Shown here piece by piece: positions 57,487 through 60,810 of a stretch of 64,000 bases of DNA. Origin of the DNA: a virus (taxonomy: Duplodnaviria > Heunggongvirae > Uroviricota > Caudoviricetes); IMG/VR virus record IMGVR_UViG_3300046006_001304; one strand, written 5' to 3'. The notes beneath the pieces are model-generated. The model did no database searches, had not been told where the DNA came from, and worked only from the letters and a program-made list of their open reading frames with translations. Every line of letters begins with the position of its first letter. Position 1 is the first letter of the stretch. The translations under genes were made by a program, and so were the position numbers.

Positions 57487-58070
57487 TTGTAGAATTAGGT
57501 CAAACACACAAAGAATTAATTAAGCCTCTTTTTTATAGAGACACTTATATGGGCATGGACCTAAGCTCTAACTATATTGTTGACCCCAGCGAAAAAGTAC
57601 AAACGGTATTTTACAATACGTTTGTAGATACATACCTATCTGGTCTACGTAACTACAAGGCTTTAGGCTTAGTTGAAAATGGCGTAGTAAAATCACTGAT
57701 ATCATTTTATATGAGCCCAGATGAACCTTGTTGGTACGGAACAATGATCCGTAGTCTTAATGATAAGAACTATGTACGACCACTATTAGATTCAGCGATG
57801 GCATTTAACGAGACTCGTGGCCGTTTAAAGTTTTACACTCTTTGGAATGCCGACCACGGTAAATTACTACGTAGATTTGCGTTTAGCACAGTCGCAAACA
57901 CTCGTTACGATTATGTAGATGAAATACTAGTACCAGCAAGGACTAAATGTGTTTACACTAACTACTGGCAAATACTGTTTAACAGAACTTTACTGCCCGT
58001 TGACAGTGTTGTACGCTGTACCTTTTTAAAACAAGAATACAGAACTACTCCTATAGGAGGTAATATATGA
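57483..58070 (+). CDS. Hypothetical protein (195 aa)
   Basis: Translationally coupled ORF. Confidence 0.45.
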   Translation: MIVELGQTHKELIKPLFYRDTYMGMDLSSNYIVDPSEKVQTVFYNTFVDTYLSGLRNYKALGLVENGVVKSLISFYMSPDEPCWYGTMIRSLNDKNYVRPLLDSAMAFNETRGRLKFYTLWNADHGKLLRRFAFSTVANTRYDYVDEILVPARTKCVYTNYWQILFNRTLLPVDSVVRCTFLKQEYRTTPIGGNI

Positions 58071-58672
58071 ATATGGTAAGCCCGTTCAAATTGTTTGAAC
58101 AAGATCTAAACACATTCAAGCTCAGTGCTAATATACATCTAGGACAAGAGCTACGTGAATTCTTTACAGACCCCACTAACGATTACCTGTGGCAGTTAAG
58201 TACCCATAGACAAACTGTTACTCACGCTCTACGCTACACAGAAAGTATACCTTTACGCTACTTAAAAGACTTGCCCAAAGGTTCCACAACAATGGAAGCC
58301 AATCAGCATATGGCAGTTACCGATTCAAAGCTAGCTGACATACCTGTATTTAGAAAGACGATCAATTGGTTTGAATCCACACTCGCCGCAACTGGCTGTA
58401 GTCGTGTAGAGTTTGGTCGAGTCTTTGCTAGTAAGCTCTCAGGCAATCAAAAGATAGACATACATACAGATGACGGCAAGTATTTTAGCTATTACGATCG
58501 ATTTCATTTTACGGTAACAGCCGCCCCCAATAATCTGTTTGTTATACGTGATGAAGAATGTGTACTAGAACAGGATTCGTTGTATTGGGTCAATAATCAT
58601 GTGCCGCACTGGCTTGAGAATAAAAGTACAGAAGGCAGAATAAATTTTATTATAGATGCTAGATTAATATGA
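58067..58672 (+). CDS. AspH-like cupin Fe(II)/2OG hydroxylase
   Basis: IDIHTDDGKYFSYYDRFHF...CVLEQDSLYWVNNHVPHWLEN parallels the AspH C-terminal W-EG-..-FDDSFEHEV-N block. Confidence 0.6.
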   Translation: MNMVSPFKLFEQDLNTFKLSANIHLGQELREFFTDPTNDYLWQLSTHRQTVTHALRYTESIPLRYLKDLPKGSTTMEANQHMAVTDSKLADIPVFRKTINWFESTLAATGCSRVEFGRVFASKLSGNQKIDIHTDDGKYFSYYDRFHFTVTAAPNNLFVIRDEECVLEQDSLYWVNNHVPHWLENKSTEGRINFIIDARLI

Positions 58673-59544
58673 AGATTGAAAACATATATGCCGATTGGGG
58701 ATCAATAATTTACTTAGAGTCTCCACAAGAATTTTTTAGTAAGCCACATGGCTACTGGCGTGATCTAATGTACGAGCGTAAATTAATATTTTTTAAAAAA
58801 GTAGAATTTACTAAAGCTGAGTACGCAGAATTTAGTACATATTTTGGTAATCCTTGGACTAGTGAGGACTACAAATACTCTCGTGAAGTTGTAGAGTCTG
58901 TAGAAACTAAAAATGGTATTATGACCATAAGCCCGTTTAGTAATGCCAATTCTAGATTAATTGATGATAGAGAAATGCCGTGGCATGCTGATATTCCTAA
59001 CAGAGAATTCAAGCCATATCCTTTTAGAAGTTTATGGATTACTGCTAATCCTAACCCAGAATTATCAGGTAAAACAAGTTGGCTAAACTTAGAAAAGGGC
59101 ATGGACTTCCTTACGTCTGAGATGAAAGCAATGATACCAACTGTTAAAGTAGTTCAGCAAAGTTGGTACGAAGAAGGCAAAGATATACAGGAATTTGATT
59201 TATTAAAAGTACATCCAATCACAGGAAAAGAGTCGCTACGTTTAAATTATTATAACTGGGGGTTATTAAAAAATGCTTGGATATTAGATGTAAAAATTAA
59301 TGATGTAGCCCAAGGTCATTGTTTCTTAGTTAGACAATGGTTACAGCATTTAGAAAAGTTTTCTGAATTACGTTATCAACACACTTGGGACTTACACGAT
59401 ATTGCTGTTTATGATAATTGGTCTTTTTTACATTCTCGGACCGCATTAAAATTTACTGTTGAGCAACCTATTAGACATTTTTACAGAATTAACATAGACC
59501 ACTTAACTGACGAAGAGTGGAATTTACATAAACAACAATTATGA
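58669..59544 (+). CDS. TauD/TfdA-family Fe(II)/2OG dioxygenase-like protein, paralogue of 40126..40980
   Basis: MPWHADIPN...SGKTSWLNLEKGMDFLTSEMKAMI in the same motif order as 40126..40980. Confidence 0.55.
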   Translation: MKIENIYADWGSIIYLESPQEFFSKPHGYWRDLMYERKLIFFKKVEFTKAEYAEFSTYFGNPWTSEDYKYSREVVESVETKNGIMTISPFSNANSRLIDDREMPWHADIPNREFKPYPFRSLWITANPNPELSGKTSWLNLEKGMDFLTSEMKAMIPTVKVVQQSWYEEGKDIQEFDLLKVHPITGKESLRLNYYNWGLLKNAWILDVKINDVAQGHCFLVRQWLQHLEKFSELRYQHTWDLHDIAVYDNWSFLHSRTALKFTVEQPIRHFYRINIDHLTDEEWNLHKQQL

Positions 59545-60086
59545 ATTTATTAATCACTCCTGATAATCAAGGACCCTGGGCTGTACGTTACCTAAGTGTA
59601 CAGCACAGATTTGATAATACCTCTTTTTATAATAACTATTTTTCACCTAGTTTAAAAGAAGCAGGAATGAACATTAGGAAACAAACAGCTGATCTTAAAA
59701 CAGACTGGTCTGCGCATAATCAAATATTTTATGATTCGGCAGCTGACGGAAATCTAGTATGGCGTGTAAAAGTTGGAAATAAAGAAACACGTAGTATTGA
59801 CTACGTTGAAGTGTGGCGTAGTGTTAATGTTTTAAATCAGTATTTTGGAAAACAGACCGATATGCCTAATTGGACAACAGCCAGTAGAAAAACATTCAAT
59901 GAACAGCTATTTGAAAGTGGATTTATTATATCAGACTTACAAGAATTCCCGTTAATATCAAAAAAACAAGCAATTGAGTATTACAGAATTTTTGTAGACA
60001 AATGGAAGTCTAAAGACGACTGTATCATTAATACTCCCTGGAACAAAGAACTTAACCCATTAGATCCTGTCGAACATCAGGTTTAA
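59541..60086 (+). CDS. Hypothetical protein (181 aa)
   Basis: Translationally coupled ORF. Confidence 0.45.
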   Translation: MNLLITPDNQGPWAVRYLSVQHRFDNTSFYNNYFSPSLKEAGMNIRKQTADLKTDWSAHNQIFYDSAADGNLVWRVKVGNKETRSIDYVEVWRSVNVLNQYFGKQTDMPNWTTASRKTFNEQLFESGFIISDLQEFPLISKKQAIEYYRIFVDKWKSKDDCIINTPWNKELNPLDPVEHQV

Positions 60087-60810
60087 ATTTTCCATCGATA
60101 CGGATAGAAAAACTGAAATGCTTAACGCATTCAGTTCCGTGAAAATCCATTTCGTTAAACCAAACAAACTTTTTACTAGGATCCGGGTATACTCGTTCTA
60201 AGCTAGTTCCATCCATCACATAGACAGATTTAGATTCTTGTTTAGTTGTGAACCAAATAAAATCATCATTGGGTTTTTGTTTGCGTTGTTCCTCAGTAAG
60301 GACATCGTAATGCGGTACTGTAGAATTATTTGCTTCAGTCATAAAGAATATAACTCGACCTATACTTTCAAACGGTAGTGTTTCTATAAATTTGACTAGA
60401 CTAGGAAAATGTTTAGCATTTTCAGTCCAAGCGCAATCCTTGGCTACTGCTTTATTAAACACTCCCGTTGCTTCAACCCGTTTATTGTTTCTAAGAAATA
60501 TTAACCAAAAAGGATGTGGGTTGTATGTTAACGCATTAAGATATTTTATTTTTTCATCAGTTGTAGTTAAGGTACGAAATGTTTCTAACTGTAGGGGTGT
60601 TAGTCTATTTTCTACATCAAGTACAATAGTAGTTATTTCTTGTTCGGCCCAATTAGTGTGGACCCCGCTAGAAACAAAACGCTTGCTCCATTCTGCTCGT
60701 GCTATACCTAAACATACTTCGTTATGTAACTGATCCCAATCAGGGGCTGTAACATAGTTGTCTAAGTATTTAAATGGAGTATTATTAGAATCTAGTCCGA
60801 TGATTGGCAT
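60052..60810 (-). CDS. AspH-like cupin Fe(II)/2OG hydroxylase
   Basis: TVPHYDV...DFIWF...VYVMDGTSLERVYPDPSKKFVWFNEMDFHGTECV in AspH motif order. Confidence 0.55.
   Translation of the reverse strand: MPIIGLDSNNTPFKYLDNYVTAPDWDQLHNEVCLGIARAEWSKRFVSSGVHTNWAEQEITTIVLDVENRLTPLQLETFRTLTTTDEKIKYLNALTYNPHPFWLIFLRNNKRVEATGVFNKAVAKDCAWTENAKHFPSLVKFIETLPFESIGRVIFFMTEANNSTVPHYDVLTEEQRKQKPNDDFIWFTTKQESKSVYVMDGTSLERVYPDPSKKFVWFNEMDFHGTECVKHFSFSIRIDGKFKPDVRQDLMG

Follow-up and report, generated by a model that had tools for sequence, protein, structure and literature searches.

Results

Six predicted 2OG oxygenase genes in an auxiliary-gene island

The 64,000-nt stretch of DNA analysed here (the window) comes from a large uncultured water phage with a genome of ~276 kb, which matched no cultured phage at the nucleotide level and gave only weak matches at the protein level. 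Six genes of the window lie, in separate units, in a hypervariable auxiliary-gene island beside tail-fibre genes (Table 1); the giant ORF, a tail-fibre-like protein, resembles cyanomyophage tail-fibre and structural proteins. All six coordinate pairs of the original prediction proved to be exact ORFs. Judged from sequences and structure models, the six genes on balance appear to encode soluble Fe(II)/2-oxoglutarate (2OG)-dependent oxygenases, four of them AspH-like (A1-A4) and two TauD/TfdA-like (T1 and T2). Two TauD-like and five AspH-like genes had been predicted; the former number was correct, whereas profile scans of all window ORFs recovered four AspH-like genes and no fifth. At least eight 2OG oxygenase genes were counted in the phage, two of them just outside the window.

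Table 1. Genes of the oxygenase-bearing units, ordered by position in the window.
Gene	Position	Strand	Description	Basis or remark
813-aa protein	19963..22404	(-)	N-domain "X" (~1-600) and radical-SAM domain (614-740)	Pfam Radical_SAM 54.7 bits
A1	22401..23069	(-)	Putative AspH-like oxygenase inside radical-SAM operon	PF05118 42.3 bits
p348	23059-24105	(-)	Upstream of A1, same operon	
TwiB	24102-25406	(-)	Twitch/SPASM radical-SAM	NCBIfam NF033640 N_Twi_rSAM 361.9 bits (cut-off 170)
T1	40126..40980	(+)	TauD/TfdA-family	PF02668 103.4 bits (cut-off 27)
A2	49352..49981	(-)	Putative divergent AspH-like cupin oxygenase, 209 aa	Conserved motif, profile link, AF2 fold
DES	55737..56597	(+)	Membrane di-iron desaturase/hydroxylase-family	PF00487 60.8 bits
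PPL3	56542..57486	(+)	PP-loop (SGGxDS) ATP pyrophosphatase, 314 aa	Weak QueC and tRNA_Me_trans matches, P-loop region only
p195	57483..58070	(+)	Partner of PP-loop enzyme	Conserved
A3	58067..58672	(+)	Putative AspH-like oxygenase, 201 aa, soluble	PF05118 27.0 bits (cut-off 22.6)
T2	58669..59544	(+)	Putative TauD/TfdA-family oxygenase, 291 aa	PF02668 61.7 bits (cut-off 27)
p181	59541..60086	(+)	Conserved cassette member	
A4	60052..60810	(-)	Putative virus-restricted 2OG-oxygenase family, 252 aa	AspH/proline-hydroxylase structural clade

At the Pfam gathering cut-offs (22.6 bits for PF05118, Asp_Arg_Hydrox; 27 bits for PF02668, TauD), T1 and T2 matched PF02668 along the whole domain, as expected, and the expected match to PF05118 was obtained for A1 and A3 but not for A2 and A4, neither of which had a match in Pfam, NCBIfam or PHROGs. 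A2 and A4 were linked to this Pfam family only by profile matches to A1 and by fold ranking. The family profiles of A2 and A4 matched A1 among the 166 window ORFs, with E-values of ~2e-5 to 6e-5 (3e-5 for the A2 family and 6e-5 for the A4 family), and the A3 family was also linked to A1 by profile. BLASTP among the four AspH-like proteins detected only A1 versus A4 (E 2e-4 over 54 aa). All four are single domains of 201-252 aa in which we found no additional Pfam domain and, in a TM scan for hydrophobic segments, no TM segment.

A double-stranded beta-helix (cupin/DSBH) fold was predicted for A2 and A4 by AF2 models and for the other four proteins by PF05118 or PF02668 scores above the cut-off. 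Taken together, Pfam matches, motifs and AF2 models support the predicted Fe(II)/2OG-oxygenase fold, of the AspH-like and TauD/TfdA-like kinds, in all six. The H-x-D...H metal triad was invariant in the families of A1 (H148, D150 and H196, 100% conserved in 53 homologues), A2 (H92, D94 and H153, with N102, in 59 sequences), A3 (H133, D135 and H181 in 12 homologues) and A4 (H167, D169 and H224), and was present in T2; the exception was T1, with H109-x-N111. A candidate arginine for binding the 2OG C5-carboxylate lies 10-13 residues C-terminal of the distal histidine in all six proteins and was invariant in the family alignments (R206 in A1, R163 in A2, R191 in A3, R237 in A4 and R266 in the T1/T2 column). 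Both the triad and the arginine are thus kept in five of the six oxygenases.

Identity between the oxygenases did not exceed 25% (22.5% for T1 versus T2), and each belongs to a separate, widely conserved viral family. The six are therefore not recent paralogues or duplicates, and the term "paralogues" used in the original prediction is misleading. By their alignments, they represent four separate AspH-like and two TauD/TfdA-like families, each kept across many uncultured large myovirus-like phages.

A1 is tied to radical-SAM enzymes by operon structure and fusions

A1 lies in a cassette (18807-25406) composed of a twitch radical-SAM (rSAM) gene, p348, A1, the X-rSAM gene and a second twitch-rSAM gene, and the genes of the p348/TwiB/A1 operon overlap by 4-11 bp. 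These neighbours were kept across 66 loci, p348 in 41, the 813-aa rSAM protein in 37 and a twitch rSAM in 31. Furthermore, 26 of 53 A1 homologues were fusions with either p348 or the N-domain of the 813-aa protein. Rosetta-stone fusions included A1+X (n=21), p348+A1 (n=5) and A1+Trp-halogenase+X; residues ~60-430 of the 813-aa protein share homology with the C-terminal portion of A1-fusion proteins from other viral contigs. One A1 relative was fused or adjacent to a flavin-dependent halogenase. Neither p348 nor domain X has a recognisable fold. The presence of an O2-requiring oxygenase and an oxygen-labile rSAM enzyme in one operon, and in relatives in one polypeptide, is biochemically awkward.

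A2 and the Asn-for-Asp protein T1

The A2 unit (46489-50966) holds a TctC-like binding protein, A2, a B12-rSAM protein, p101 and a PP-loop-like protein, and the A2 and rSAM (47944-49386) genes share 35 bp. The A2 family has 347 remote representatives. The best Foldseek matches of its AF2 model (pLDDT 79.2) were the Cpz10-type beta-hydroxylase 7v4f, the 2OG oxygenase 9scf, AspH (5apa) and an L-Pro cis-4-hydroxylase, and motif and predicted fold place A2 in the AspH/proline-hydroxylase clade.

In the T1 unit (40126-42335), T1 is convergent with a gene for a 12-TM membrane protein. The T1 sequence WH109-C-N111 aligned with the WH-S-D of taurine dioxygenase 5vn6. N111 was kept in at least 90% of 30 aligned family members, with Asp in only two, and H255 and R266 were invariant. 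Lacking the canonical Asp ligand, T1 may not be a standard oxygenase. No NCBIfam equivalog cut-off was reached by T1 or T2, and we rejected their assignment as taurine dioxygenases: T1 scored 54.8 bits against the equivalog NF007104 (cut-off 313) and T2 did not match it. The record annotation "taurine dioxygenase" is a family-level name only.

The window also encodes a FabK-like enoyl reductase and two B12-type rSAM proteins. The latter scored far under every NCBIfam cut-off, and their best match was the PhpK P-methyltransferase subfamily (65 bits versus a cut-off of 600). A Rieske oxygenase is also among the island enzymes.

A seven-gene cassette holds A3, T2 and A4

The genes DES, PPL3, p195, A3, T2 and p181 follow one another in this order, with A4 convergent (55737-60810); consecutive genes show 4-bp overlaps, among them that of the A3 stop with T2. 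DES has the His boxes H69xxxxH, H106xxHH and H236xxHH and TM segments. The nearest PDB match of the PPL3 profile was NH3-dependent NAD synthetase (E 3e-5), and two PPL3 paralogues lie in the window (42376-43308 and 54255-55244). T2 motifs that aligned with TfdA/TauD chains were WH105-A-D107, the distal His in "FLHSR" and the Arg in "IRHFYR". Searches of Pfam and PDB gave no match for p195 or p181, the latter with 34 invariant alignment columns. The AF2 model of A4 (pLDDT 94.5) matched the fold of 2OG oxygenases, and by sequence and model A4 represents a new putative 2OG-oxygenase family of the AspH/proline-hydroxylase clade.

We counted the cassette genes in 15 distinct viral contigs or loci that hold an A4 homologue. 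PPL3 was present in all 15, p195 in 14 (always immediately after PPL3), DES in 14 (where present, always contiguous with PPL3-p195), T2 in 12 and A3 in 10, and p181 adjoined the A4 homologue in 13. The members lay within 4-14 kb, and gene order and flanks differed among loci. The content of the seven-gene cassette is kept, and its order is shuffled among relatives.

Discussion

Small-molecule tailoring as the favoured role

By analogy with the superfamily, the H-x-D...H residues would hold iron and the arginine the 2OG C5-carboxylate. Oxidative decarboxylation of 2OG would then give an Fe(IV)=O species able to attack an unactivated C-H bond by hydroxylation or another oxidation. In the infected cell, the enzymes would carry out stepwise oxidative tailoring of a small molecule, amino-acid-derived or acyl/lipid-type, and the PP-loop enzymes would activate the substrate by adenylation. 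We infer that this is the most likely role and, by a modest preference, part of the best explanation. The original prediction, that a peptide-like or small-molecule scaffold is tailored, is a fair general reading, because the oxygenase genes lie together with genes for B12-type and other radical-SAM enzymes. We lean toward a small molecule or lipid because TauD/TfdA enzymes typically act on small molecules, a His-box membrane desaturase-type enzyme is a constant companion and the window holds the FabK-like reductase; a ribosomal peptide or protein is a less likely target. That the AspH family also includes the lipid acyl hydroxylases LpxO/OlsC (PMC5767591) argues in the same direction, and A1 and A3 belong to the same Pfam family as these enzymes. 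Against a lipid role, the phage oxygenases have no membrane anchor of the kind expected in LpxO/OlsC-type hydroxylases. In addition, the co-localisation of DES could partly reflect island structure and not a common pathway, since cyanophage desaturase-type genes can act alone as membrane-fluidity AMGs (PMC5776448). Because no fold could be recognised for p195, p181, p348 or domain X, the logic of the pathway is guesswork.

Human AspH carries a TPR domain together with a membrane anchor, and only two His ligands are reported for it. The phage proteins differ from the clade of AspH, proline-3- and cis-4-hydroxylases and Cpz10 in being single domains of 200-250 aa with a full HxD...H triad, and their identity to any solved clade member did not exceed 16%. 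Their closest folds are mostly those of enzymes that hydroxylate free amino acids or small molecules. The implied assignment to AspH proper, the beta-hydroxylase of Asp/Asn in EGF domains, was not supported for these proteins, which have neither the TPR domain nor the TM anchor. AspH-like genes beside membrane His-box desaturase/hydroxylase-type genes recall OlsC and OlsE of ornithine-lipid modification. We also rejected identity with LpxO or OlsC, as the four AspH-like proteins have no TM segment and no NCBIfam match. No lipid A or ornithine-lipid synthase gene was recognised, and the lipid-type neighbours were only DES and the FabK-like protein. Among TauD/TfdA/clavaminate-synthase-like oxygenases, T2 keeps the HxD...H...R pattern, whereas the T1 family has Asn for the Asp ligand.

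More tentatively, the small-molecule reading might extend to the whole island as a viral counterpart of natural-product "gene clusters", encoding a biosynthetic or tailoring pathway of several steps. PP-loop proteins would activate carboxylates, and radical-SAM (two of them B12-type), His-box di-iron, Rieske and the six 2OG oxygenases would decorate an amino-acid- or lipid-derived metabolite, with A4, A2, the Asn-for-Asp TauD variant and the AspH-rSAM and AspH-halogenase fusions as parts. The product, for example a modified aminolipid or bioactive small molecule, would be made during infection. We regard this extended scheme as speculative.

Peptide, protein and nucleic-acid substrates

The original prediction drew an analogy to proteusin-type RiPP pathways. 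Here, the oxygenases, B12-rSAM methyltransferases and twitch/SPASM rSAMs would modify a phage- or host-encoded precursor peptide. Peptide hydroxylation is an established activity of AspH-type enzymes, polytheonamide-type proteusin clusters likewise combine a 2OG hydroxylase with B12-dependent rSAM enzymes, and both rSAMs and flavin-dependent halogenases, to which A1 relatives are fused or adjacent, are common in RiPP clusters. The B12-binding and twitch/SPASM rSAMs also gave weak matches to the maturases rSAM_ocin_1, ApyD, GggB and PapB. However, all of these scores are far under curated cut-offs (34 versus 282 bits for the B12-rSAM against a RiPP C-methyltransferase model), the best B12-rSAM match is to the PhpK subfamily, and the rSAM similarity is generic. 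In contrast to proteusin clusters, no epimerase, dehydratase or N-methyltransferase was recognised; none of the 11 short ORFs scanned (66-123 aa, including 47607-47912) was recognised by Pfam as a Nif11/NHLP or other precursor, and the abutting or overlapping cassette genes leave almost no intergenic space for an unannotated one. In domain scans, known types of leader peptidase, RRE and exporter were likewise missing. The analogy therefore fared poorly, and a RiPP-type pathway seems unlikely.

If the oxygenases were instead protein hydroxylases, their targets would be virion proteins, such as the giant tail-fibre-like protein, or translation factors and other host proteins. Collagen hydroxylases of PBCV-1 or mimivirus and bacterial EF-Tu or ribosomal oxygenases offer models for this function, and fold matches included AspH, PHD2, Pseudomonas P4H (EF-Tu) and the PBCV-1 prolyl hydroxylase. 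The island also adjoins tail-fibre genes in relatives L013-L016, L031 and L033. We consider protein targets quite unlikely.

It is improbable that the PP-loop (QueC/TilS-like) proteins, rSAMs and oxygenases make modified DNA or tRNA bases, such as 7-deazaguanine derivatives: the QueC similarity covers only the SGGxDS P-loop (~65 residues) at scores far under the cut-offs, no DpdA/TGT or QueE-equivalent match was found in the window, and AspH-like and TauD-like families are, to our knowledge, not nucleic-acid oxygenases. A metabolic drain or rewiring, in which the oxygenases matter mainly through 2OG and O2 use and succinate output and not through a specific product, has been proposed for cyanomyophages with several 2OG oxygenases (PMC3037559) and would suit the clustering in the window of many O2-using enzymes with superoxide dismutase, but it is highly improbable. 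The six families differ greatly, each is conserved in its own right and has its own substrate-side sequences, and the genes are tightly coupled in operons and fused to domains of partners that are not oxygenases, all of which points to specific substrates.

Relation to other aquatic phages

A large number of 2OG oxygenases is a known feature of aquatic T4-like phages. Multiple such genes per phage are thus familiar, and what is added here is defined, testable units, namely the seven-gene cassette in 15 distinct viral contigs and the radical-SAM/AspH-like cassette tied by fusions. Further such units are two undescribed putative oxygenase families (A2 and A4) absent from Pfam, NCBIfam and PHROGs, and a TauD-like family with Asn for the Asp metal ligand. 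Were the cassettes to produce or alter a metabolite or membrane lipid, they would represent auxiliary metabolism of a new class in phages; were proteins the targets, they would represent post-translational control of a new kind.

According to published accounts, cyanomyophage genomes hold as many as five 2OG-Fe(II) oxygenase genes together with phytanoyl-CoA dioxygenase-like (PhyH-like) genes (PMC3037559), AspH is core to all pelagimyophages, and both phage groups have the same kind of non-syntenic island near tail fibres, with rSAM cassettes, termed the "host recognition cluster" (PMC7029224). These phages resemble the present one in having several 2OG oxygenase genes in a tail-fibre-side island with radical-SAM cassettes, and differ from it in their smaller genomes. 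The searched parts of three papers make no mention of the DES/PPL3/p195/A3/T2/p181/A4 cassette or of the A1-rSAM fusions. Given the several such genes of cyano- and pelagimyophages, "extraordinary", as the copy number was called in the original prediction, is an overstatement. Related phages carry 1-7 2OG-oxygenase genes per 20 kb, mostly at least three, along with up to seven copies of a His-box desaturase-type gene and a ketoacyl synthase.

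The window carries four AspH-like and two TauD-like oxygenase genes

The six genes of the original prediction, namely the AspH-like A1 to A4 and the TauD/TfdA-like T1 and T2, each coincided exactly with an open reading frame (ORF), and the observation of four plus two real oxygenase genes was essentially right. The expected Pfam assignments, PF05118 and PF02668, were recovered for A1 and A3 and for T1 and T2, respectively, but not for A2 and A4, which had no match in Pfam, NCBIfam or PHROGs. Five AspH-like genes had been counted, although coordinates were provided for four; when every one of the 166 window ORFs with 60 aa or more was searched, profiles of three AspH-like families and TauD matched only the four and two ORFs listed here, and a fifth AspH-like gene was rejected.

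The family profiles of A4, A2 and A3 each matched A1 (E 6e-5, 3e-5 and 2e-5, respectively), the sole other window ORF that they matched. A1 is thus the hub that ties the four AspH-like proteins to the PF05118 neighbourhood. The A4 and A2 families did not match significantly by hhalign, and A1, A3 and the A2 and A4 profiles yielded nothing significant against solved structures by sequence alone. The description of the genes as paralogues did not hold in the sense of recent duplication, which was rejected because all-against-all BLASTP and phmmer found almost no pairwise similarity. BLASTP paired only A1 with A4 (E 2e-4, 54 residues) and T1 with T2 (22.5% identity), and phmmer concurred. Each gene represents its own family, widely distributed in viral contigs; homologues of A1 and A4 were found in 66 and 18 IMG/VR loci, respectively.

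Coordinates of the oxygenase genes and other features (window positions unless a locus is named)
Feature	Position	Strand	Evidence or remark
A1, AspH-like	22401-23069	-	PF05118 Asp_Arg_Hydrox, E 9e-11, 42.3 bits vs cut-off 22.6 (Pfam-A)
A2, AspH-like	49352-49981	-	
A3, AspH-like	58067-58672	+	PF05118, E 5e-6, 27.0 bits (Pfam-A)
A4, AspH-like	60052-60810	-	
T1, TauD-like	40126-40980	+	PF02668 TauD, 103.4 bits (Pfam-A)
T2, TauD-like	58669-59544	+	PF02668, 61.7 bits (Pfam-A)
DES, desaturase-like	55737-56597	+	
p195	57483-58070	+	
p181	59541-60086	+	
p348	23059-24105	-	
813-aa protein	19963-22404	-	
A1-homologue fusion proteins	L052:4453-7956	+	also L043, L048-L050, L054-L060, L045, L063, L073, L076, L078
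PP-loop paralogues	42376-43308, 54255-55244, 56542-57486 (PPL3), 46489-47604, 51815-52969		
B12-radical-SAM paralogue	45047-46492	+	
B12-radical-SAM paralogue	47944-49386	-	
Mtd_N-domain gene	561-1187	-	
3740-aa ORF	1469-12691	-	
IscA/HesB-type Fe-S assembly protein	12661-12984	-	
Fe/Mn superoxide dismutase	13309-13869	-	
Bax1-inhibitor-family membrane protein	26272-26967	-	
Translation initiation factor IF-1 homologue	38637-38855	-	
DUF2828/DUF7788 protein	61241-62719	-	adjoins tRNA-Val(TAC), tRNA-Arg(CCT)
tRNA-Val(TAC), tRNA-Arg(CCT)	63311-63385, 63706-63780		
Locus just past the window's right end, same contig	L001:15327-19578		Rpb6 (RNA polymerase omega-like), 2OG-FeII_Oxy_5, 2OG-FeII_Oxy_3, nitroreductase

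Catalytic residues and predicted folds

Against the refuting conditions set with the original prediction, the metal-binding triad was present, with T1 as the one exception, and the folds were oxygenase folds. H148, D150, H196 and R206 were 100% conserved among 53 distinct A1 homologues, and the A3 family keeps H133, D135, H181 and R191. Public metagenomes contained 110 homologue clusters of A4, all of them lacking a Pfam domain; H167, D169, H224 and R237 were invariant in an alignment reaching down to 44% identity. The confident AlphaFold model of A4 (pLDDT 94.5, pTM 0.91) matched PHD2, AspH and L-proline cis-4-hydroxylase in Foldseek. A2 had only 8 close homologues, and an exhaustive profile search gave 347 representatives at E <=1e-3, in 59 of which H92, D94, N102, H153 and R163 were invariant; PF05118 weakly touched 2 of these 59. 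The A2 model (pLDDT 79) had Cpz10 (7v4f), AspH and proline hydroxylases among its best Foldseek matches. Judged by these residues, profile matches and models, A2 and A4 are two new predicted oxygenase families outside current libraries.

T1 has the motif W-H109-C-N111 where taurine dioxygenase reads W-H-S-D; the T2 motif is normal (H105-A-D107). Among 30 aligned members drawn from 309 T1 homologues, Asn occupied the Asp position in at least 90%, with Asp only in two close relatives, and the distal His255 and Arg266 were invariant. The Asn might be made up for by a D/E that is conserved two positions ahead of the His (L-D/E-W-H). We are not aware of a previously described Asn variant in the TauD family, and the T1 family is a putative one newly defined here. 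T1 is convergent with a gene for a 12-TM membrane protein. A scan of IMG/VR for close relatives of T1 found none.

A cassette around A3, T2 and A4

From DES to p181, the gene order is DES, PPL3, p195, A3, T2, p181, with 4-bp overlaps between neighbours except DES-PPL3, where the mechanically called ORFs overlap by 56 bp. DES is a membrane desaturase-family protein with three His boxes and TM segments, and PPL3 is a PP-loop ATPase with SGGTDS whose nearest solved relative in profile searches was NAD synthetase. p181 and A4 are convergent and overlap by 35 bp (60052-60086). A terminator-like hairpin with a T-run (minus strand, 60862-60845, in the 60813-60862 region) was noted upstream of A4, directly followed by a promoter-like TTGACT-17-AATACT just before the A4 start.

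At 15 distinct loci with an A4 homologue (45-74% identity), the partners lay within 4-14 kb: PPL3 at 15/15, DES and p195 each at 14/15, p181 at 13/15, T2 at 12/15 and A3 at 10/15. Although order, orientation and flanking genes vary among these loci, the content is kept, which argues for a functional link between the cassette genes rather than inheritance by synteny alone. PPL3, p195 and DES were contiguous at every locus with all three. In one relative (L009), the A4 homologue is surrounded by seven desaturase-type genes, a Rieske protein, two TauD-like and three PF05118 genes and a ketoacyl synthase. PDB profile searches with p195, p181 and the PP-loop proteins gave no informative functional lead, and PHROGs was largely empty for them.

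A4 is essentially virus-restricted. A scan of 185,579 species genomes returned two matches only. One was a 4174-bp contig (L029, CAITDW010000132.1) carrying the A4, p181, T2, A3 cassette at 71% identity; it was binned in a 'Candidatus Saccharibacteria' MAG and is most likely a mis-binned phage contig. The other had 26% identity and an uninformative neighbourhood. A cellular origin of A4 was rejected on this outcome.

A1 has radical-SAM partners and A2 lies beside a B12-type radical-SAM gene

The A1 operon comprises a twitch radical-SAM gene (NF033640, 362 bits), p348, A1, the 813-aa protein and the second of the window's two twitch radical-SAM genes. Across the 66 viral loci, A1 was accompanied by p348 in 41, by 813-aa homologues in 37 and by a twitch radical-SAM in 31. 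Fusions also occurred. In 21 of the 53 distinct A1 homologues, the oxygenase is joined to a homologue of residues ~60-430 in the 813-aa protein; these residues belong to the N-terminal, non-radical-SAM part of that protein, which in the window shares one chain with a radical-SAM domain. Another 5 A1 homologues were fused to p348. One homologue of 1167 aa was three-part, combining PF05118, a flavin-dependent Trp-halogenase (E 4e-85) and an 813-aa N-domain homologue. This newly defined gene-fusion evidence is a sequence-based indication that the AspH-like oxygenase is coupled to radical-SAM partners.

A2 is flanked by a TctC-like binding protein on one side and a B12-type radical-SAM on the other, after which come a 101-aa protein and a remote member of the PP-loop group. 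The two B12-radical-SAM paralogues match each other at E 1e-73, and the best NCBIfam match of both, below threshold, was the PhpK P-methyltransferase subfamily. The window holds three clear and two more distant PP-loop paralogues. All five (SGGxDS) fall within 15 kb, with a possible sixth at 43926-45050, and three of them have one partner each, an unrelated protein of ~195-215 aa whose fold was not recognised. None matched cultured phages by tblastn.

Proposed role of the oxygenases

By the mechanism of the superfamily, H-x-D...H would hold Fe(II), the Arg would hold 2OG, and Fe(IV)=O would hydroxylate the substrate. Tailoring of a small molecule, either amino-acid-derived or an acyl/lipid substrate, is the favoured role. 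Small molecules are the typical substrates of TauD/TfdA enzymes, which favours this role, as does the ranking of hydroxylases of free proline/pipecolate and Cpz10, which hydroxylates a caprazamycin intermediate (PMC9814697), ahead of AspH among the closest folds. The constant partners, a putative adenylating PP-loop enzyme and a membrane His-box enzyme, point the same way, and the FabK-like reductase, ketoacyl synthase and binding protein found in the window or its relatives were counted toward it. LpxO/OlsC, which hydroxylate lipids, likewise belong to the AspH family (PMC5767591), and this again favours small-molecule tailoring; however, the lack of a TM segment in any of the phage oxygenases opposes a direct analogy with LpxO/OlsC.

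The proteusin analogy drawn originally, in which the enzymes would serve a RiPP pathway, appears unlikely, as no precursor was found among the 11 short ORFs (66-123 aa) scanned and there was no family-level match; the short ORFs considered as precursor peptides were IF-1, the IscA-like protein, a MazG-like protein or of no assigned identity. Hydroxylation of virion proteins such as the tail fibre, or of host proteins, is quite improbable. The 3740-aa ORF is Thr/Gly/Ser-rich, without a Pfam domain and partly similar to cyanomyophage tail-fibre/structural proteins, and an adjoining tail-fibre-type gene has an Mtd_N (major tropism determinant) domain, but the giant ORF lacks the collagen-like or EGF-like repeats that would be targets. 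Nucleic-acid modification, for which the support consists of a P-loop resembling that of QueC/TilS and a QueD-like gene at a distance of 40 kb, is very unlikely.

The phage and its other genes

The five copies counted originally had been called extraordinary, a view that known phages temper. In the list of Sullivan et al. (PMC3037559), a cyanomyophage has as many as five genes for 2OG-Fe(II) oxygenases, plus phytanoyl-CoA-dioxygenase-like genes. According to Zaragoza-Solas et al. (PMC7029224), AspH is core to all pelagimyophages, which have a large hypervariable island with AMGs and radical-SAM cassettes beside the tail-fibre genes. The relatives found here carried 1-7 such oxygenases per 20 kb, mostly at least three. 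With six in 64 kb and eight or more genome-wide, the present phage falls toward the upper end of this known pattern. What is new here is the definition of two conserved cassettes, together with the fusions, the two library-absent families and the Asn-variant TauD family.

A close cultured relative was rejected: megablast of the 40-61 kb region against 50,697 phage records gave no nucleotide match, and tblastn of A1, A3, T1 and PPL3 gave weak matches or none. Exact window proteins recur on many metagenome contigs, the longest of 275,918 bp. The phage is large, uncultured and myovirus-like, and its relationships are with the cyano-/pelagimyophage group. The window also encodes ClpP, DNA ligase, UvdE, Bax1-I, SPFH, superoxide dismutase, IF-1, an IscA-like Fe-S protein and two tRNAs; the IscA/HesB-type protein and the dismutase fit a genome rich in Fe-S and iron oxygenase enzymes. 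The DUF2828/DUF7788 protein was matched by 711 phage records and is annotated as an 'RNA-binding protein' in many phages.
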